DNA from: Candidatus Mediterraneibacter pullicola
GTDB lineage: Bacteria; Bacillota; Clostridia; Lachnospirales; Lachnospiraceae
Direction: 5' to 3'
DNA length: 64,000 nucleotides
Assembly (NCBI GenBank): GCA_019117065.1
Contig: DXAK01000043.1
Span: 124,671-188,670 of the forward strand
Shown here one piece after another: positions 3,741-54,860 of this stretch. The stretch's first letter is position 1. Every line of letters starts with the position of its first letter. The notes under the pieces are model-generated. The model was not told the origin of the DNA. It saw only the letters and a program-made list of their open reading frames with translations, and did not search any database. Position numbers and translations under genes: made by a program.

Positions 3741-4222
3741 CAAAAGAGAGATTTGCAAAAGGCGGCATTATAAAATACGTTGTGCTAGTGCTAATTGTGA
3801 TCTTTATCGTGATTCTTATGCTTTATACGAGTGGGAGTAGCAAGCCTTTTGAGGAGATCAGGCAGTCTGTTGCAAGCGTTCTGGACAAAAGTAACCTCAA
3901 AGAGAAGGATGAAGCCTCGTTTAAAAGGAATACAGGACTGAATGCGGCGGATTACTCGGGGGTGATGTACTATGCCTCCGAGTCCAATCTGTCGGCAGAG
4001 GAGGTTCTGCTGATTCGGGTGAGGAGCGGCAGCCAGATACAGGAAGTAAGGGAAACGCTTGAGGCACGTATCGACAGCTGTATCAGTGATTTTGACGGGT
4101 ATGTTCCTGAGGAAGTGAAGTTGCTGGAAGAAGCGGTGCTGAATGTGAGAGGGAATTATATTTTCTTCGCAGTGGCTCCGAAGGCGGAGGAATATCTGGA
4201 AGCTTTTAGGAACAGTCTGTAA
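3737..4222 (+). CDS. Membrane-anchored protein, DUF4358-like (family assignment tentative)
   Basis: ATG at 3737 has a GGAGGTGG RBS and forms an ATGA overlap with the upstream stop. One N-terminal TM helix followed by a soluble domain. Such genes typically accompany MBOAT/DHHW genes in Clostridia. Confidence 0.65.
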   Translation: MTKERFAKGGIIKYVVLVLIVIFIVILMLYTSGSSKPFEEIRQSVASVLDKSNLKEKDEASFKRNTGLNAADYSGVMYYASESNLSAEEVLLIRVRSGSQIQEVRETLEARIDSCISDFDGYVPEEVKLLEEAVLNVRGNYIFFAVAPKAEEYLEAFRNSL

Positions 4223-13920: not shown

Positions 13921-13959
13921 CTACAGTACACTCTCATATAAACCATGCCCAATGAGGAA

Positions 13960-14115
13960 CATGCATCGTTCAAGCTTTAGCATCACAGGGCATATCAATT
14001 GCATTAGGCTGCGCCTTCACGACACGGCCTGCTGACCAACTCATCGTGTCTCCACGATCTTGCGGCAGCAATCTTCGGGTTATACCCAATCCCTGTGGTA
14101 ACCTCACCTACCGAA
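13960..14115 (-). promoter_or_regulatory. M-box (ykoK leader) Mg2+ riboswitch aptamer
   Basis: The minus strand contains GTAGGTGAGGTTACC, TTGCTGCCGC, GACACGATGAGTTGGTCAGCAG and CTGTGATGCTAAAGCTTGAACGA. These match the conserved blocks of the B. subtilis mgtE M-box as I recall them. It is located upstream of mgtE. Confidence 0.85.
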
Positions 14116-14200
14116 ATGATGTATTTTATTTTTACATAGGTTCATTCTAGTATCTGGACATCATTCTGTCAAGAAAAACTTTGATGATTGTCTGTGCGGT

Positions 14201-22714: not shown

Positions 22715-22852
22715 AAGGTATTTCACAAACAAGTATTATTTTTGGTTGACATGGATTCACCCGGATGTTACTCTGGAAATAAAGAAAGACAGAAGCAGTC
22801 CGGCAAGGCGACTGACGCGCGGCTGGACCGGAACTGTGGAAGACAACATGTA

Positions 22853-22918
22853 TACTTATATAGGTTCATAATCGGTTGAACGTCTCTACCAGCCGCCGCA
22901 AACGGCTGACTATGAGTA
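22853..22918 (+). promoter_or_regulatory. Purine riboswitch aptamer, guanine/hypoxanthine/xanthine class (C at the specificity position)
   Basis: ACUUAUA-UAG-GUUCA-UAAUCGG-UUGAAC-GUCUCUACC-AGCCG-CCGCAAA-CGGCU-GAC-UAUGAGU. This gives P1/P2/P3, a GG in L2 and CC in L3 for the loop-loop contact, a J2/3 UCUCUAC core and GAC-UAUG (C74 equivalent). Confidence 0.8.
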
Positions 22919-22968
22919 TGCGGGATGGACAGTGTGCCATTGTGCGTATACAGAAAGGAGGCAGGCCG

Positions 22969-29128: not shown

Positions 29129-30073
29129 TTACAACTGTATCTTTGTTCCGGTCTTCCCCAATATTCCGTCTTTTGCCTTTTCGAGCAGAGTGATCAGCGC
29201 TTGTCTTCCCGGTTTGGATTCTGCGAAGTCAACGGCAGCTTGCACTTTCGGAAGCATGGAACCGGGGGCAAAGTGTCCTTCATCTATGTACTGCTTTGCC
29301 TCATCCACGGTGATATCGCCAAGCCATTTTTCGTTCGGTTTTCCATAGTTGATGGCGGCCTTTTCCACGGCGGTAAGAATAATCAGAATATCTGCGTCTA
29401 GTTCCTTTGCCATCAGGCAGCTTGCAAAGTCTTTGTCAATGACCGCGCTGGCGCCCTTTAAGTGATTGCCCTGCCGTGTGACCGGGATGCCTCCGCCTCC
29501 ACAGGCGATGACAAGGTCACCAGAGTTTACCATCGTGCGGATGGTGCCGATCTCAACGATCTCCTGCGGCTTTGGAGATGCGACGACACGGCGGTATCCG
29601 CGTCCCGCGTCCTCTTTCATGATGTAGTCATATTTTTCTGCCATCATGTCAGCCTGTTCTTTTGTCATGAAGCGTCCGATGGGCTTTGAAGGATTTTCAA
29701 ATGCCGGGTCGTCCGGGTCAACCCTGACCTGTGTGATCATGGTTGCCACCGGAATATCGGTGATCCCTCTGTTTAAAAGTTCCTCTCTGAGCGCGTTCTG
29801 AAGGTCATAGCCGATGTACGCCTGACTCATCGCCACGCAGACGGAGAGCGGTGTGTTCGGCTGCTGGGGGTCTTCATGTGTCAGTGCGATCATGGCGTTG
29901 TTCACCATGCCAACTTGAGGACCGTTGCCGTGGGCCACGACGACCTCGCAGCCTTCTTCGATGAGGTCAACGATCGCTTTTGAGGTGATCTTTACAGCCT
30001 TCATCTGTTCCGGCAGGGTGTTGCCCAGAGCATTTCCGCCGAGGGCAATGACAATACGTTTTTTCTTATCCAT
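29129..30073 (-). CDS. arcC: Carbamate kinase (YqeA/ArcC)
   Basis: N-terminal IVIALGGNAL motif. 314 aa amino-acid kinase fold. Confidence 0.92.
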   Translation of the reverse strand: MDKKKRIVIALGGNALGNTLPEQMKAVKITSKAIVDLIEEGCEVVVAHGNGPQVGMVNNAMIALTHEDPQQPNTPLSVCVAMSQAYIGYDLQNALREELLNRGITDIPVATMITQVRVDPDDPAFENPSKPIGRFMTKEQADMMAEKYDYIMKEDAGRGYRRVVASPKPQEIVEIGTIRTMVNSGDLVIACGGGGIPVTRQGNHLKGASAVIDKDFASCLMAKELDADILIILTAVEKAAINYGKPNEKWLGDITVDEAKQYIDEGHFAPGSMLPKVQAAVDFAESKPGRQALITLLEKAKDGILGKTGTKIQL

Positions 30074-33150: not shown

Positions 33151-34356
33151 TTATCGGTCGTTTCCTCCCCAGACGATGGATTCGTATCTCTGCGGGTCCG
33201 TGTCGCCCTCTGTGGAGAAGAGGAGGACTTTGGAATTCCCGTCGAGTCCAAGGTGATCTCTAAGGGGTTTGTACTCATCCATTGTCATGATGCACGCAAG
33301 TGTTCCAAAAGGTGCTGCTCCGGATTCTCCGGATGTTACCGGCTGATCGCCCTTGATGGGAGCCGCCAGCATCCGCATGCCTCTTGCCGCTACCCAGTCG
33401 GGTGCCGCTACAAAGGTGTCTACATGGTTCTTTAAGATATCCCATGAGATAGTGTTCGGTTCGCCGCAGGCGAGCCCTGCCATGATGGTAACCATGTCGC
33501 CGTCAACAATGCGGATATCGCCGTCTCCTGCGCATGCGCCTTTATACAGACATGCGGCAGCTTCCGCCTCCACAACGATGACTTTTGGCGGGTTCTCGGG
33601 ATAACGGTTTGCGAAATATCCCTGAACCGCTCCGGCAAGAGAGCCTACACCTGCCTGAATAAACACATGGGTCGGGCGCTCGCAGCCGTATTCGTGAAGC
33701 TGGTTGTCCGCCTCCATCGCCATGGTGCCGTAGCCCTGCATGATCCATGAGGGAATCTCCTCGTATCCATCCCATGCGGTATCCTGTACCATGACACCGT
33801 TTTCTGTTTTTTCAGCCATCGCGTTTGCCATGCGGACACATTCGTCGTAGTTTTCTTCTTCGATCGTAGCTTGAGCTCCTTGTGCAAGGATGTTGTCGAG
33901 CCTTGTCTGTGTCGTTCCTTTCGGCATGAGGACAACTGCCTTTTGCCCTAGTTTATTTGCAGCCCACGCAACGCCGCGGCCATGGTTTCCGTCCGTGGCC
34001 GTGAAGAAGGTTGCCTGACCGAATTCTTTTCTGAGCGCTTCAGAAGTGAGTACATTATAAGGAAGTTCTGATACATCTTTTCCGGTCTGTTTTGCGATGT
34101 AGCGTGCCATGGCGAAGGAACCTCCGAGTACTTTGAAGGCGTTCAGGCCGAAGCGGTAGGATTCATCCTTTATGTATACTTCTTTGAGACCAAGATGCGC
34201 CGCCATGTGATCGAGTTTTGTCAGCGGTGTGACCGTGTACTGGGGAAAACTCTCGTGGAAGGCGCGGGCTTTTTTTACCTCGTCAAGCCCCATGACCGCA
34301 AGTTGGGTGTCGTCGGTCTTTGGCATTTTGTTTACTGCCCATTTGATTGTTTCCAT
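33151..34356 (-). CDS. ygeX: 2,3-diaminopropionate ammonia-lyase (PLP, fold type II)
   Basis: Start refined to ATG 34356 (AAAGGAGG, 7-nt spacer). PLP-lysine motif LNAFKVLGG and glycine-rich loop GVGSLAGA. Confidence 0.9.
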
Positions 34357-34396
34357 TATGGAACCTCCTTTATTATTCATTTTTCTTGTCCCTTTC

Positions 34397-34523
34397 GCAT
34401 GCCCAGCTCGAAATCACCGCTTTGCGGTTCCTCCTCGCTGGTGGCAGCCGCCATATGCCGGAATCGACACTCCGTGCCGCTTGCAGACAAGCCCGCACGC
34501 AAGGAGTGTCTCTCCGGCGCGTG
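34397..34523 (-). repeat. Structured GC-rich leader element, copy 1 (ygeX-proximal)
   Basis: 127 nt with 7 substitutions relative to copy 2. Period is exactly 150 nt. Confidence 0.95.
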
Positions 34524-34546
34524 TTCTTTTGAGTTATTTTTCCGGA

Positions 34547-34674
34547 GCATGCCCAGCTCGAAATCACCGCTTTGCGGTTCCTTCTCGCTGGTGGCAGCCG
34601 CCATATGCCGGAATCGACGCTCCGTGCCGCTTGCAGACAAGCCTGCGCGTCAGGAGTGTCTCTCCGGCGCATGC
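34547..34674 (-). repeat. Structured GC-rich leader element, copy 2 (abuts regulator stop codon)
   Basis: Direct repeat of 34397-34523. It starts immediately after the TGA (34675-34677) of the upstream gene. Confidence 0.95.
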
Positions 34675-35322
34675 TCAGCTTTTGTCCATATAGCTGTACA
34701 ATGTGAATTTTGATATCCCGAGAAGGGAAGAGACCTTGTCTCCCGACTTTGTGATCAGGAATGCTCCCGCGTTGTTTAAATACTGTACCACGGCGATCTT
34801 GTCGTCCTTATTCATCAGCGCTACCGGTTTCCCGACTTTTGCAATCGCTTGTTCGATGAGCAGATCCAAGAGTTCGGTCACGTTGTGGGTGATCGTCTGC
34901 GGAGTATTCCCGCTCTTTTCTCCGGCATTCTCTTCAGGTTCGGTCTGTATCAGACCATGGAGTGTGTTCTCTATGGCCAGCAGTGTTGTGATATCATAAT
35001 TAATGGAAAAAATATAAGCGACTTTGTCATTGTCATCCCGGATGTATAGGGTGCTGGATTTTAAGATCCTGCCATCGTCCGTCCGGGTGAGGTAAGCAAG
35101 TCTGTCTTTTACCGTCGCGGGATCGGAGCGGAGAGTTTCAAGCACAATTCCCGAGGGACCGTCTCCAGTGTGACGGTTGGATACATGACCGTTCTCAATA
35201 TAGACGATAGACCGATCCAGATCTTTTTTTGTCAGATCATGGATAACAACCTCGCAGGAGTTCCCAAACTGGGAAGTGATACCGTGTGCGAGCTGTTTTA
35301 AAAACTCAAGTTTATGGATCAT
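34675..35322 (-). CDS. YheO/DauR-like transcriptional regulator (PAS-like sensor plus C-terminal HTH)
   Basis: N-terminal YheO-type PAS_6-like segment (CEVVIHDL...SIVYIENGHVSNR) and C-terminal HTH (DKIAVVQYLNNAGAFLITKSGDKVSSLLGISKFTLYSY). Confidence 0.8.
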   Translation of the reverse strand: MIHKLEFLKQLAHGITSQFGNSCEVVIHDLTKKDLDRSIVYIENGHVSNRHTGDGPSGIVLETLRSDPATVKDRLAYLTRTDDGRILKSSTLYIRDDNDKVAYIFSINYDITTLLAIENTLHGLIQTEPEENAGEKSGNTPQTITHNVTELLDLLIEQAIAKVGKPVALMNKDDKIAVVQYLNNAGAFLITKSGDKVSSLLGISKFTLYSYMDKS

Positions 35323-35425
35323 TTTTCACCTGCCTTTTTCAGCGTAAAGCCAGAGGGAAAATGTAAATGTGATGTGTGTCTCTAACCCCATCATAGCATA
35401 AAAAAAGATGGTGTCAACACTTTTT

Positions 35426-35460
35426 CTAAAAATTTTTTAGGCAATCTAAAAATTATTTAG
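35426..35460. promoter_or_regulatory. Twin palindromic operator candidates
   Basis: CTAAAAATTTTTTAG (35426-35440) and CTAAAAATTATTTAG (35446-35460), centres 20 bp apart. They abut the -35 of the ssnA-operon promoter. Confidence 0.55.
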
Positions 35461-53627: not shown

Positions 53628-54860
53628 TTAGTCATCGTAATCGTCGTCTGCATAGTCGTCGTCGTAATCTTCGTCATAATCGCCGCCCCTTGAGGTGATC
53701 GCAAGGATCAGAGTAATTATGGCGAGTACAGCGCATGCGCCTGCGGCAATGAGAAGCTGGAATTCATCGCCTCGCTTAAGGAAAGCGAATACGCCGCCTC
53801 CGAGATAGAAGAGCATGGGCAGTAAGAAAGCGAACACAGAGTTCGTCCCAAGAGTAATGAAGTACACCAGCGCGGAAACAAGCAAGCAGAGTGCAAGAAT
53901 GACGAATGTCATTCCAGAGACTGTTCCGCTCTCTGCAGAGGAAAGTCCAAATGAAAATCCTCTATACATGAGGTATCCGAAACCTGCAAGTGAGATGATG
54001 GCGAGAAGAACGCGCATCACACGGAACCTTGGCGCATCCTCATAGTAATCGTCATCATATTCGTCGATCTCCGGCTCTGGTTTTTTTGTGACCGGCTTTG
54101 CAGCTGCATTTTTCTGTTTTGTATCAGTTTTGGAAACAGGCGCTTTCCCGATCGCGCGGGTATCGTCGTCTGTCTGTGTTTTTTTCTTTCTTGCCGGCTT
54201 GCCGATTGTTCCTGTAGCAAGCATATCTTCGTATCCTTGACGAGCTGCAGTTTCATGTTTTGTACGAACTCTCTCCGGCGGGATATTGCTGTAACGCTTC
54301 TCGTCGGATGCGTTCTGTGCTGTACCATTTGCGGAACGTTTCTTTATCGGTTTTTTTGCGGGAGAAGAAGAAACCTCTTCCTCAGAGGTCCGGCGTTTCG
54401 GCCGCGGAGCTCCTGTCTTTTGTACTCCGTCTTTTGGAATAGCTCCTTTCTGGGGAGCAGCTTTTTGACCCGGAGTTCTTCTTAGGGAGTCAGCGTTTTC
54501 CTGAGCCGGAGTTTTCTTTGGCGCGTTAGTGTTTTTCTGAGCCGGAGTTTTCTTTAGCGTGTCAGCCTTTCCCTGGACAGGAGCTTTTTTCATAGGTTCA
54601 TCCTTCGGAACCGATGACTTTTTGGCAGGTGCTTTTTCCGGTGTTGCAGGCTTCTTTGTTGTGGCTGCTTTTTTCGCAGACGCCTCTGCGGATGCAGGCT
54701 TTTTTGCCGCTGCTTTTTTTGCGCGCTGTTTGTCAAGATTCCACTGTTTACGGCAGTCGCGGCATATCGCATATTCATTAAAGATCGGATCACCGTTTTC
54801 ATTGGTGCCAATCTGTTTGTTTTTCAATTCAAGTTCTTTTCCACATATTGGACACTTCAT
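53628..54860 (-). CDS. Zinc-ribbon / K-A-P-rich disordered / multi-TM protein with poly-acidic D-Y tail
   Basis: Start refined to ATG 54860 (AGAGAGGAG RBS). The order is CPICG...CRDC ribbon, about 230 aa of lysine/alanine/proline-rich repeats, 3-4 TM helices, then C-terminal GGDYDEDYDDDYADDDYDD. Confidence 0.75.
   Translation of the reverse strand: MKCPICGKELELKNKQIGTNENGDPIFNEYAICRDCRKQWNLDKQRAKKAAAKKPASAEASAKKAATTKKPATPEKAPAKKSSVPKDEPMKKAPVQGKADTLKKTPAQKNTNAPKKTPAQENADSLRRTPGQKAAPQKGAIPKDGVQKTGAPRPKRRTSEEEVSSSPAKKPIKKRSANGTAQNASDEKRYSNIPPERVRTKHETAARQGYEDMLATGTIGKPARKKKTQTDDDTRAIGKAPVSKTDTKQKNAAAKPVTKKPEPEIDEYDDDYYEDAPRFRVMRVLLAIISLAGFGYLMYRGFSFGLSSAESGTVSGMTFVILALCLLVSALVYFITLGTNSVFAFLLPMLFYLGGGVFAFLKRGDEFQLLIAAGACAVLAIITLILAITSRGGDYDEDYDDDYADDDYDD
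54470..54572 (-). repeat. In-frame 36-bp tandem repeat (about 2.6 copies) inside the zinc-ribbon protein gene
   Basis: CTGAGCCGGAGTTTTCTTTGGCGCGTTAGTGTTTTT / CTGAGCCGGAGTTTTCTTTAGCGTGTCAGCCTTTCC. These encode (L)KKTPAQ(K/E)N units. Confidence 0.8.

Follow-up and report, generated by a model that had tools for sequence, protein, structure and literature searches.

REP sequences and other intercistronic hairpins change the stability of mRNA segments. In enterobacteria, REP/BIME elements such as those at malE-malF are GC-rich, very stable imperfect palindromes, which reside right after the stop codon inside an operon, often in tandem and in modular or mosaic arrangements, and which are not terminators. 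According to PMC12306157, which cites its reference 17 on this point, ribosomes stall at REPs located less than 16 nt from a stop codon, and the gene upstream is translated less. The tandem structured RNA element described here, which fills the gap between a regulator gene and the genes for uric-acid-breakdown enzymes in gut Lachnospiraceae, resembles REPs in these anatomical traits, and the likeness extends to the action proposed for it, i.e. a ribosome roadblock at termination and an exonuclease barrier. However, REPs are simple hairpins of ~35 nt, occur in hundreds of dispersed copies and are linked to RAYT transposases, whereas this element is a 134-nt four-way junction at a single locus, which is passed on vertically and whose sequence is far better conserved than neutral sites.

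In the cggR-gapA operon of Bacillus subtilis, processing uncouples the regulator from the enzymes encoded by the same operon. As in the ygeX operon, the regulator gene comes first and is followed by genes for highly expressed catabolic or glycolytic enzymes, and an RNA feature ending the regulator cistron would permit unequal levels of both parts. Uncoupling in cggR-gapA is determined by RNase Y cleavage close to a modest stem-loop, whereas the present element is not known to be cleaved and is a much larger, repeated structure. Tandem riboswitches (glycine and others) as well as purine and xanthine/urate (NMT1) riboswitches are likewise covarying RNAs in front of purine-pathway genes, the tandem ones consisting of two adjacent copies. 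In contrast to these, the element has neither an Rfam match nor an expression platform, is missing from many orthologous operons and is conserved mainly in its helices, less so in unpaired positions that could form a binding pocket. Moreover, its copies are 95–100% identical and polymorphic in number, whereas tandem riboswitches comprise two distinct conserved aptamers. Finally, the BOX, RUP and Correia repeats of Gram-positive bacteria and Neisseria are also modular, structured and variable in module number, and they are transcribed within operons, where they can affect mRNA stability or processing. However, these are multicopy families that are mobile or were formerly so, whereas the element occupies one locus per genome and no terminal-repeat or target-duplication signature is apparent in it.

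The regulator-ygeX gap and its tandem repeat

The ygeX operon is part of a pathway by which gut bacteria clear uric acid from the human intestine (bioRxiv 10.1101/2025.04.24.650524; bioRxiv 10.1101/2025.05.19.654654). A literature search for the YheO family and for RNA motifs linked to ygeX or ygeW returned nothing relevant. To our knowledge, nothing has been published on the regulation of the uric-acid operon in Lachnospiraceae. In the window, i.e. the whole 64-kb stretch of DNA analysed here, Pfam confirmed the two neighbours named in a first-pass annotation of the sequence, namely a YheO-like regulator and ygeX (Table 1), whose protein is identical to the one named diaminopropionate ammonia-lyase in Candidatus Mediterraneibacter pullicola. 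The Pfam matches following the regulator are, in this order, a PALP (ygeX-type) enzyme, an M20 peptidase, an OTCase-like protein and carbamate kinase, corresponding to an operon of the layout regulator-ygeX-ygeY-ygeW-carbamate kinase with the element as an untranslated spacer inside. No promoter was predicted in the regulator-ygeX gap. Because the sole strong promoter nearby is located upstream of the regulator gene and the gap measures only 10–63 nt in element-free orthologs, regulator and ygeX are likely co-transcribed, which would place the element between two cistrons of one mRNA. No transposase genes occur within ±10 kb of the element. Upstream of the regulator gene, a CTAAA-N5-TTTAG palindrome is kept in 18/18 lineages, with or without the element, and the two palindromes of the window represent a candidate operator for the YheO-like regulator, which is a testable side result. 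Rfam also identified a true purine riboswitch 11 kb away in the same window.

The gap holds a single tandem array (TRF: 34397-34670, period 150, 1.8 copies, 95% matches, score 506), which is by far the strongest repeat of the 64-kb window. The annotation had described two direct copies with a period of exactly 150 nt and seven substitutions, five of them in the first hairpin. Indeed, alignment of the units by BLAST and nhmmer over 127 nt revealed seven mismatches (94.5% identity), five in the long hairpin and one each in P1 and P4, although these differences are not fixed among strains (L108 and L114; see below). A 23-nt linker between the copies was found as annotated, but it is rich in A only, not in A and U; in covariance-model coordinates, it shares its ends with the outermost positions of P1, and A-rich sequence is found 3′ of each unit on the minus strand. 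With P1 included, a unit comprises 134 nt, and both units together cover 34394-34677 of the minus strand. The TGA stop codon of the regulator, correctly assigned to 34675-34677 (minus strand), belongs to unit A. That the units are structured, as had been proposed, is supported by MFE values of −69.7 kcal/mol for unit A (z = −6.0) and −67.5 kcal/mol for unit B (z = −5.4); none of the 200 dinucleotide shuffles that served as background folded as well. Gene callers placed spurious ORFs of 75–172 aa in the repeat.

Table 1. Features of the regulator-ygeX region, in coordinates of the 64-kb window
Feature	Position	Strand	Basis
Two CTAAA-N5-TTTAG palindromes, 20 bp apart, candidate operator	35426-35460		conserved palindrome
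Only strong sigma-70-like promoter nearby, TTGACA-16-TATGAT with extended TG	35390-35417	-	11/12 matches; upstream of regulator
YheO-like regulator gene (PAS_6 + HTH_22)	34675-35322	-	Pfam E-values 1.9e-35 and 1.4e-20
Unit A, promoter-proximal copy, four-way junction including the regulator UGA stop	34544-34677	-	covariance model R1, 112.2 bits, E 6.5e-20
P1 5′ strand, unit A (GAGCAUGC)	34669-34676	-	pairs with 34545-34552; model alignment and pair counts
P2 of unit A, long interrupted hairpin, ~25 pairs	34607-34668	-	compensatory changes at 15/25 pairs
P3 of unit A, short hairpin UGGC-GGCU-GCCA	34592-34603	-	folds and model pair counts
P4 of unit A, hairpin with an AAA loop and two symmetric internal loops of GA/GA type	34553-34590	-	fold and model
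23-nt A-rich linker between the two annotated copies (UCCGGAAAAAUAACUCAAAAGAA)	34524-34546	-	sequence; 150-nt period
Unit B, ygeX-proximal copy, fold as unit A	34394-34527	-	covariance model R1, 92.2 bits, E 6.3e-16
P2 of unit B	34457-34518	-	equivalent of unit A P2
P3 of unit B	34442-34453	-	equivalent of unit A P3
P4 of unit B	34403-34440	-	equivalent of unit A P4
ygeX SD, AAGGAGG	34364-34370	-	nucleotides with P(unpaired) 0.7-0.99
ygeX (diaminopropionate ammonia-lyase), first enzyme gene downstream	33151-34356	-	Pfam PALP match

Fold, covariation and conservation of the unit

Each unit forms one four-way junction composed of helices P1–P4 and not, as initially described, two separate domains; the earlier fold had overlooked the closing helix P1 and the short hairpin P3. 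In unit A, the 5′ strand of P1 (GCAUGC/GCAUGC) shares the GA with the stop codon, and in other lineages the entire UGA is paired with a UCA; in the 5′ unit of the window, MFE pairing starts at the nucleotide after the UGA and not within it. The 5′ strand of P1 is degenerate in unit B (ACACGC). An invariant junction dinucleotide AU precedes P3, and Watson-Crick pairs replace the GA/GA loop of P4 in lineages L028 and L032. Unit length ranges from 133 to 141 nt between lineages and stability from −65 to −87 kcal/mol per unit, and the junction leaves almost no nucleotides unpaired. The region after the regulator stop codon folds at −75 kcal/mol as compared to a median of −32 kcal/mol for 49 proxy genes in the window. 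In nearly all gaps carrying the element or a remnant, the offset between the stop codon and the start of stable pairing is −3 to 0 nt, and in L035 and L040 it is 12–14 nt. That is, a stable hairpin lies within the distance of less than 16 nt after the stop codon that PMC12306157 gives for REPs.

Covariation, strand preference and pairing were determined for 20 distinct units, which had to be realigned by covariance model because MAFFT by itself put P1 and the lower P2 in the wrong place. In total, 91.6% of the cells pair, and double (compensatory) changes are present at 24/50 pairs; covariation, which the first-pass annotation had set as a test for the element, was thus found. None of 500 shuffles reached the observed level, and slid controls gave values of 4–7. 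The sense RNA folds more stably than the antisense RNA in 20/20 units, with a mean difference of 6.8 kcal/mol. Counting G-U versus A-C combinations (47 versus 30) is an only mildly informative strand test, partly because window-type rows are misaligned in P2, and comparing the MFE of both strands gave the clearer answer. We conclude that the fold is real and belongs to the sense-strand RNA.

Identity between lineages amounts to 0.76 for the element, whereas four-fold sites of the gene next to it reach 0.43 and the spacer downstream 0.39. Conservation is higher for the element in 35/36 lineage pairs, and the rate ratio of ~0.28 indicates ~4-fold slower change than at neighbouring synonymous sites. 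Hence, the element is under purifying selection; it is also inherited vertically, and its divergence tracks that of the regulator (Spearman 0.55). Invariant columns make up 9/42 of the unpaired versus 43/100 of the paired positions, the junction AU and the GG of the P3 loop being invariant while unpaired, and primary sequence is strongly conserved at the junction core (CGGCAUA.GGCGG..GCC...CAGC).

The annotation had recognised no RNA class, and Rfam is in agreement. At gathering thresholds, Rfam 15 returned nothing overlapping the element in the window; at E ≤ 10, only chance matches to lncRNA and snoRNA models appeared in 34300-34760, and at E ≤ 5 no match overlapped the element in 5–6 other lineages. 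The families covered include Purine, NMT1/xanthine, glycine, ZTP, M-box, PyrR, T-box and self-cleaving ribozymes, among others. A tRNA-like element, an idea derived from the four-way junction and a UUCGA-containing arm, was also considered, and ARAGORN reported no gene in 34300-34760.

Distribution, loss and copy number

A pattern scan of ~185,000 species genomes returned seven matches, at most one per genome, five of which represent the regulator-ygeX gap and two of which are chance matches; this collection did not return the species of the window, for which the count comes from the 64-kb window and the ±10-kb flanks in sister strains. Covariance model R1 matches this locus only (64-kb window plus 304 kb of related loci). 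The pattern scan of viral contigs gave 0 matches, and blastn with the element gave none in plasmids and phages. Thus, the annotation's option of a genome-wide REP/MITE-type repeat is essentially refuted; the element is confined to a single locus, and its carriers are a small set of related species.

Whether the element always precedes ygeX operons was another issue raised by the annotation. Wherever it occurs, it is located in the regulator-ygeX gap, but many orthologous operons do without it. The operon is present and the element absent in L033, L036-39, L043, L047, L049, the L050 group (~50 loci), L056 and L080, and the element is decayed in L011-L015, L027, L041 and L076. That is, sister lineages retaining the same operon and regulator have the element missing, halved or reduced to a stub, and P1 is retained even in 30-nt remnants. 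Since loss is complete in L043 as compared to its sister lineage L044, any benefit of the element must be conditional. No target-site duplication was seen at the L043/L044 boundary.

One, two or three assembled copies are found within one species, the one-copy (L026) and three-copy (L010) alleles stemming from short-read metagenome assemblies and thus being possible collapse or expansion artefacts. In L108 and L114, the 3′ copy carries 5′-copy bases at 8 and 7 of the copy-difference sites, respectively, and the tandem copies are homogenised by gene conversion. The window species, L032, L035 and L040 all have the tandem state, and duplication breakpoints vary among lineages. P1 strands are duplicated as well: L029 contains three copies of GCGCATGTTCATATCA, and TGAACATGC is doubled in L035 and L040. 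In addition, L031 exhibits a 'perfected' stem, and strain SNPs in L002 and L007 break pairs.

Possible roles of the element

With a probability of roughly 45%, we propose that the element is a selected intercistronic RNA that decouples expression of the regulator from that of the enzymes, by providing a roadblock at the stop codon and/or a processing or stability barrier. It would act in cis and post-transcriptionally, splitting the output of the regulator from that of the following enzymes on the same mRNA. The helix abutting the stop codon would hinder the terminating ribosome, leading to less regulator, and the block of stable helices may serve as a barrier for exonucleases and/or as a landmark for an endonuclease, resulting in unequal lifetimes of the segments. 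A higher copy number would be expected to strengthen the roadblock or barrier effect. The tandem state in the window would have arisen from unequal recombination, and similarity would be kept by gene conversion, which therefore argues against a cooperative two-aptamer design.

Among the three options offered by the first-pass annotation, uncoupling through mRNA processing or stability is the best fit by anatomy, i.e. very stable helices, pairing that starts at the stop codon, lack of an expression platform, dispensability and variable dosage; the mechanism itself is deduced. The REP precedent is from E. coli and may carry over to Lachnospiraceae by analogy only. The four-way junction and the conserved core exceed the needs of a generic stabiliser hairpin, and conservation of the junction-core sequence hints at a specific partner, which may be a protein, an RNase or a ligand. 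These points speak against decoupling, as do the MFE pairing that starts only after the UGA in the 5′ unit of the window and the complete loss in L043.

We regard it as rather unlikely that the element is a regulatory RNA responding to a ligand or a protein, i.e. a so far undescribed riboswitch or protein-binding leader of narrow distribution that controls ygeX and the downstream genes of the anaerobic uric-acid pathway. It would have to work without a classical platform, e.g. through RNase access or Rho. Of the tandem leader suggested by the annotation, the covarying, structured RNA (24/50 compensatory pairs, 91.6% of cells paired) is real and under purifying selection: a junction-centred fold is conserved and peripheral stems covary. 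The genes right behind it are metabolic and their cluster already employs a purine riboswitch at another place, tandem arrangements arose in the window species, L032, L035 and L040, and, given that no known class matches, it would be a new one. However, there is no expression platform. On the minus strand, neither copy is followed by a terminator-like site, in line with the annotated lack of U-tract terminators, and the SD of ygeX, located 25 nt beyond the last helix, is not sequestered. The element is not consistently present upstream of orthologous genes, many operons being element-free or decayed even where sister lineages keep operon and regulator. Instead of two aptamers in a fixed arrangement, there are 1–3 interconverted copies with differing breakpoints. 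Moreover, few junction nucleotides are unpaired and invariance centres on the helices, each unit is much more rigid than typical switching aptamers, and the operon already has a protein regulator, which contains a sensor-like PAS domain and for which there is a conserved candidate operator.

It is unlikely, too, that the element is a functionless, self-perpetuating palindromic tandem repeat, generated by template switching, slippage and gene conversion and tolerated in the spacer. Template switching can give rise to hairpins and preserve them, with changes that look compensatory (PMC8794818), and the repeated gain, loss, halving and duplication with varied breakpoints, the duplicated P1 strands in L029, L035 and L040, the conversion between copies, the 'perfected' stem of L031 and the pair-breaking SNPs in L002 and L007 are compatible with such an origin. 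However, these mechanisms preserve complementarity of the arms rather than sequence between species, where the element clearly exceeds four-fold sites and spacer in identity, and they explain neither the invariant unpaired junction AU and P3 loop GG nor the preference for the sense fold in all 20 units.

We consider it quite unlikely that the four-way-junction RNA constitutes a new sensor class of narrow distribution reading an intermediate of the recently described anaerobic 2,8-dioxopurine (reductive uric-acid) pathway. The input would be, e.g., 2,3-diaminopropionate or a ureido compound, or the RNA would be the target of a specific RNA-binding protein. The ATP-yielding branch would then be controlled in the absence of a classical terminator or SD platform, e.g. 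via ribosome termination at the embedded stop codon or via RNase access, and tandem copies would sharpen the response.

A role at the DNA level, i.e. as an operator array, cruciform or recombination site for the YheO-like regulator or another DNA-binding protein, is very improbable. The long inverted repeats (TGAACATGCGCC...GGCGCATGTTCA), the direct repetition of the P1 strand in some lineages and the HTH domain of the regulator would be in keeping with it. However, the promoter region, where a candidate DNA site of the regulator is represented by the different, AT-rich CTAAA-N5-TTTAG palindrome in 18/18 lineages, contains no GCATGC, a motif found 15 times in the window versus 21 expected, and the inverted repeats are 19 to 115 bp apart. 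Compensatory changes across 130 nt of inner helices and the sense-strand G-U bias would also be unexpected for an operator. We give hardly any credence to a dispersed REP/BIME/MITE-type repeat that landed here by chance. The element is indeed a GC-rich imperfect intergenic palindrome right after a stop codon and modular and mosaic-like, but many dispersed copies are not seen: the pattern matches at most once per genome, the covariance model is silent elsewhere in the window and ~300 kb of loci, plasmids, phages and viruses gave no matches, and divergence tracks the host gene. The chance that the element encodes a small repeat protein is practically negligible: several assemblies contain called ORFs of 75, 99 or 149 aa, the period of 150 nt is a multiple of three and the NCBI accession numbers of ygeX and the regulator have room for one entry between them, but unit length varies between 133 and 141 nt and therefore no reading frame is conserved between lineages, the ATG-initiated frame ends after 7 codons in L012, there is no SD, and substitutions follow base pairs rather than codons.

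If decoupling of regulator and enzymes by this element holds true, it would add a post-transcriptional layer to an operon for uric-acid removal in the human gut. As a selected RNA element whose dosage is not the same in all strains and species, it would be one reason why strains differ in their capacity to degrade urate. Mechanically REP-like, yet single-copy, complex and vertically inherited, the element would provide a natural test case for the idea that structures embedding a stop codon tune expression of the first cistron.

Architecture and setting of the tandem element

Tandem Repeats Finder returned a single outstanding array in the gap between the regulator and ygeX, with 1.8 copies at a period of 150 nt and 95% matches (score 506). 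Together with an alignment of the two copies, this bore out the first-pass annotation as to the tandem 127-nt cores, their period and their seven substitutions, five of which fall in the long hairpin, one in helix P1 and one in helix P4; the linker between the cores has the claimed length of 23 nt, its composition being A-rich rather than A/U-rich. The G+C content is 64% in the element versus 49% in the window. The units have minimum free energies of -67.5 and -69.7 kcal/mol (z = -5.4 and -6.0), and none of the 200 dinucleotide-preserving shuffles of either copy folds as well. Instead of the two domains proposed earlier, folding predicts one four-way junction per unit: P1 closes the unit (GCAUGC/GCAUGC, which in the 5' copy can be lengthened to GAGCAUGC/GCAUGCUC), P2 forms a long, interrupted hairpin with ~25 pairs, P3 a short hairpin (UGGC-GGCU-GCCA) and P4 a hairpin containing two symmetric internal loops of the GA/GA type. 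On the opposite strand, a T-rich run follows the complement of the base of helix P2 (GTGTTCTTTTGAGTTATTTTTT), and this site was flagged as terminator-like; it could halt antisense transcription, but other lineages do not conserve it.

The fold falls outside all described families. No RNA class had been recognised by eye, and Rfam 15 likewise gave no match to the element region even at E<=10, nor to the diverged units found in six further lineages, while the scan did pick up two genuine riboswitches at other places in the window, an M-box and a purine riboswitch. The former is a full-length Mg2+ riboswitch (88.4 bits versus a gathering score of 44); the latter (53 bits versus 37) lies ~11 kb from the element, so that the purine-catabolic cluster already uses one classical riboswitch.

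The neighbouring genes are as first described, with a PAS_6+HTH_22 (YheO-like) regulator upstream and ygeX, an M20 peptidase, an OTCase-like carbamoyltransferase and carbamate kinase following in this order. For both the regulator and YgeX, identical proteins are entered under a 'Candidatus Mediterraneibacter pullicola' MAG, whose NCBI numbering (HJA07157, ygeX; HJA07159, regulator) has one entry between them, probably a spurious ORF of the repeat. Such ORFs, called at 75-172 aa, stay in frame because the period is 150 nt. These enzymes are part of the anaerobic uric-acid (2,8-dioxopurine) pathway, described recently in papers that mention neither a regulator nor an RNA element (bioRxiv 10.1101/2025.04.24.650524; 10.1101/2025.05.19.654654). 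At the orthologous locus L001, a HicA/HicB toxin-antitoxin pair lies between the ygeX operon and xanthine-dehydrogenase genes, corresponding in the window to the position immediately downstream of carbamate kinase; HicA is uncalled in some strains (L004, L010). The only strong promoter is that of the regulator, and two perfect AT-rich palindromes, 20 bp apart, sit just upstream of its -35 box. Their motif, CTAAA-N5-TTTAG, is conserved upstream of the regulator in 18 of 18 lineages, irrespective of whether the element is present and down to 71% protein identity, and represents a candidate operator of the YheO-like regulator.

Coordinates of features in the window and at orthologous loci (L handles)
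Feature	Sequence or locus	Position	Strand
Outstanding tandem array	window	34397-34670	
Unit A, 5' copy, promoter-proximal, with P1	window	34544-34677	-
Unit B, 3' copy, ygeX-proximal, with P1	window	34394-34527	-
Regulator stop TGA	window	34675-34677	-
Palindrome CTAAAAATTTTTTAG	window	35426-35440	
Palindrome CTAAAAATTATTTAG	window	35446-35460	
Terminator-like feature	window	34506-34520	+
Spurious ORF in repeat	window	34373-34672	-
Spurious ORF in repeat	window	34195-34713	+
Spurious ORF in repeat	L002	10719-10946	
Spurious ORF in repeat	L010	5284-5733	
Spurious ORF in repeat	L006	10610-11128	
Purine riboswitch aptamer	window	22836-22932	+
M-box riboswitch	window	13956-14122	-
Carbamate kinase gene	window	29129-30073	
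HicA/HicB pair	L001	16513-17147	
Tandem array, period 36, 3.1 copies, 76% matches, consensus TGAGCCGGAGTTTTCTTAGGGAGTCAGCGTTTTCC	window	54466-54575	
Single-P1-strand repeats	L029/L030	about 2270-2320	
Single-P1-strand repeats	L015	about 3745-3775	
Gap with gene conversion	L108	1349-1666	
Gap with gene conversion	L114	949-1266	
5' copy with 'perfected' lower P2	L031	1751-1885	

Constraint on the fold and its turnover

In an alignment of 24 full units (20 distinct), guided by and fitted to the covariance model, standard pairs occupy 91.6% of cells, and both partners have changed in 24 of 50 pairs. Of 500 column shuffles, none reached any of four pairing measures, and sliding the 3' partners by 1-3 columns left a paired fraction of 28-43% and 4-7 compensated pairs. 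Template switching in hairpins is a caveat to these counts, as is the fit of the alignment to the model. G-U pairs and A-C cells number 47 versus 30. Mean identity between lineages is 0.76 for the element, 0.43 for four-fold synonymous sites of the adjacent regulator and 0.39 for the spacer that follows it; in 35 of 36 pairs the element is the more conserved (Jukes-Cantor rate ratio ~0.28). Its divergence tracks that of the regulator (Spearman 0.55), which fits vertical descent and not recent horizontal spread, and the operon-sense RNA folds more stably than the antisense in 20/20 units, by 6.8 kcal/mol on average. Judged by these comparisons, slow rate, vertical descent and sense bias mark the element as a selected, sense-strand RNA structure.

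A genome-wide REP/MITE-like repeat, one option of the first-pass annotation, is refuted, with the 64-kb window standing in for the genome of the window species. A pattern of cross-species conserved positions, run against one genome from each of ~185,000 species, matched seven times and never more than once per genome; five matches lie in the same gap of related Lachnospiraceae, and two, with different spacing and unrelated contexts, are chance matches. The covariance model, built from 14 units, found nothing outside this locus in ~300 kb of related loci and in the 64-kb window. Viral contigs, plasmids and phages gave no match either.

Orthologous loci were fetched via the regulator protein, so that the sample is unbiased toward the element, and yielded more than 30 distinct gaps. 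Many species, among them some whose regulators share 81-83% identity, show nothing but a spacer of 10-63 nt that holds the Shine-Dalgarno (SD) sequence; the element is thus missing from many orthologous ygeX operons. Other gaps hold one unit (L017/19/20/24, L028, L029, L042), 1.3-2.5 units with differing duplication breakpoints (L032, L034, L035, L040, L044), one decayed unit plus a half unit (L011), a half unit (L012, L023) or a ~30-nt stub comprising only P1 and the base of P4 (L013, L015, L027, L041, L076). The regulator proteins of L011 and L012 are identical, and yet their gaps differ by 219 nt. L043 shares its downstream flank with L044 and lacks the whole element including the element's GGA-TGA, so that the element is dispensable for the operon. 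Some gaps contain short direct repeats of just one P1 strand: L029 has three copies of GCGCATGTTCATATCA and L015 has two; L035 and L040 each have two copies of TGAACATGC on the 5' side, immediately past the regulator stop. These repeats are probably scars left by units that collapsed, and could also offer alternative P1 partners.

Two copies are present in 18 sampled strains of the window species; the assemblies of L010 and L026, both from short reads and needing confirmation, show three copies and a single hybrid unit, respectively. The 3' copy carries 5'-copy bases at eight (L108) and seven (L114) of the differing sites, which indicates strain-level gene conversion between the copies, and the seven differences in the window are thus not functional distinctions. 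In L031, the lower P2 of the 5' copy is 'perfected' (CCGGAAUCGACACUCC/GGAGCGUCGAUUCCGG), as expected from hairpin-templated repair.

Contact with the stop codon and candidate functions

P1 persists at a fixed position through all variants, including the stubs. In nearly all gaps that bear the element or a remnant of it, stable pairing starts within UGA or at the nucleotide that follows; where a duplicated P1 strand intervenes, as it does in L035 and L040, the start lies 12-14 nt past the stop codon. In several lineages, the whole stop codon is paired with a downstream UCA (e.g. UGAACAUGCGCC...GGCGCAUGUUCA). The post-stop region of the regulator is an extreme stability outlier, at -75 kcal/mol versus a median of -32 (sd 10) for 49 proxy genes in the window. 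Intercistronic hairpins, REP among them, are a classic cause of unequal stability among mRNA segments. As related in PMC12306157 from its reference 17, REP hairpins of E. coli reduce translation of the gene upstream only where they sit <16 nt away from its stop codon, the cause being ribosome stalling. Since the regulator is the first cistron and the remaining products are bulk catabolic enzymes, we infer, in all mechanistic steps, that the element may decouple regulator from enzyme expression, a tentative reading to which we assign a probability of about 45%. That is, regulator output would be reduced or insulated by it at termination, and/or it would serve as an exonuclease barrier or endonuclease landmark, with copy number determining how strong the effect is.

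A ligand- or protein-responsive RNA is unlikely, and stays alive because a junction core so strongly conserved points to some specific partner, beyond the needs of a generic hairpin. That the element is a functionless, self-maintaining palindrome is improbable: template switching can yield apparently compensatory changes in hairpins (PMC8794818), but the slow rate, vertical descent and sense bias are beyond what mutational mechanisms can explain. A new RNA sensor serving the anaerobic urate pathway is a quite improbable reading. Conservation concentrated in helices (43/100 paired versus 9/42 unpaired columns are invariant) and a junction with almost no unpaired nucleotides speak against a classical riboswitch, as do the extreme rigidity of the unit, its polymorphic tandem state and its absence from many orthologous operons. 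DNA-level roles are very improbable, and an operator function is unlikely given that another palindrome near the promoter is conserved regardless of the element. Also unlikely are a terminator (a minus-strand scan found no terminator-like site and confirmed the noted lack of a U-tract after either copy), an SD-sequestering switch (the ygeX SD lies 25 nt past the last helix and is mostly unpaired), a coding sequence (units range between 133 and 141 nt in length and keep no conserved frame) and a tRNA-like element (no ARAGORN match).

Taken together, the job most plausibly done by the element, decoupling of regulator and enzymes, is already known in kind. What is unusual is its behaviour: a structure confined to a single locus, vertically inherited and under strong constraint, and yet repeatedly lost and duplicated.
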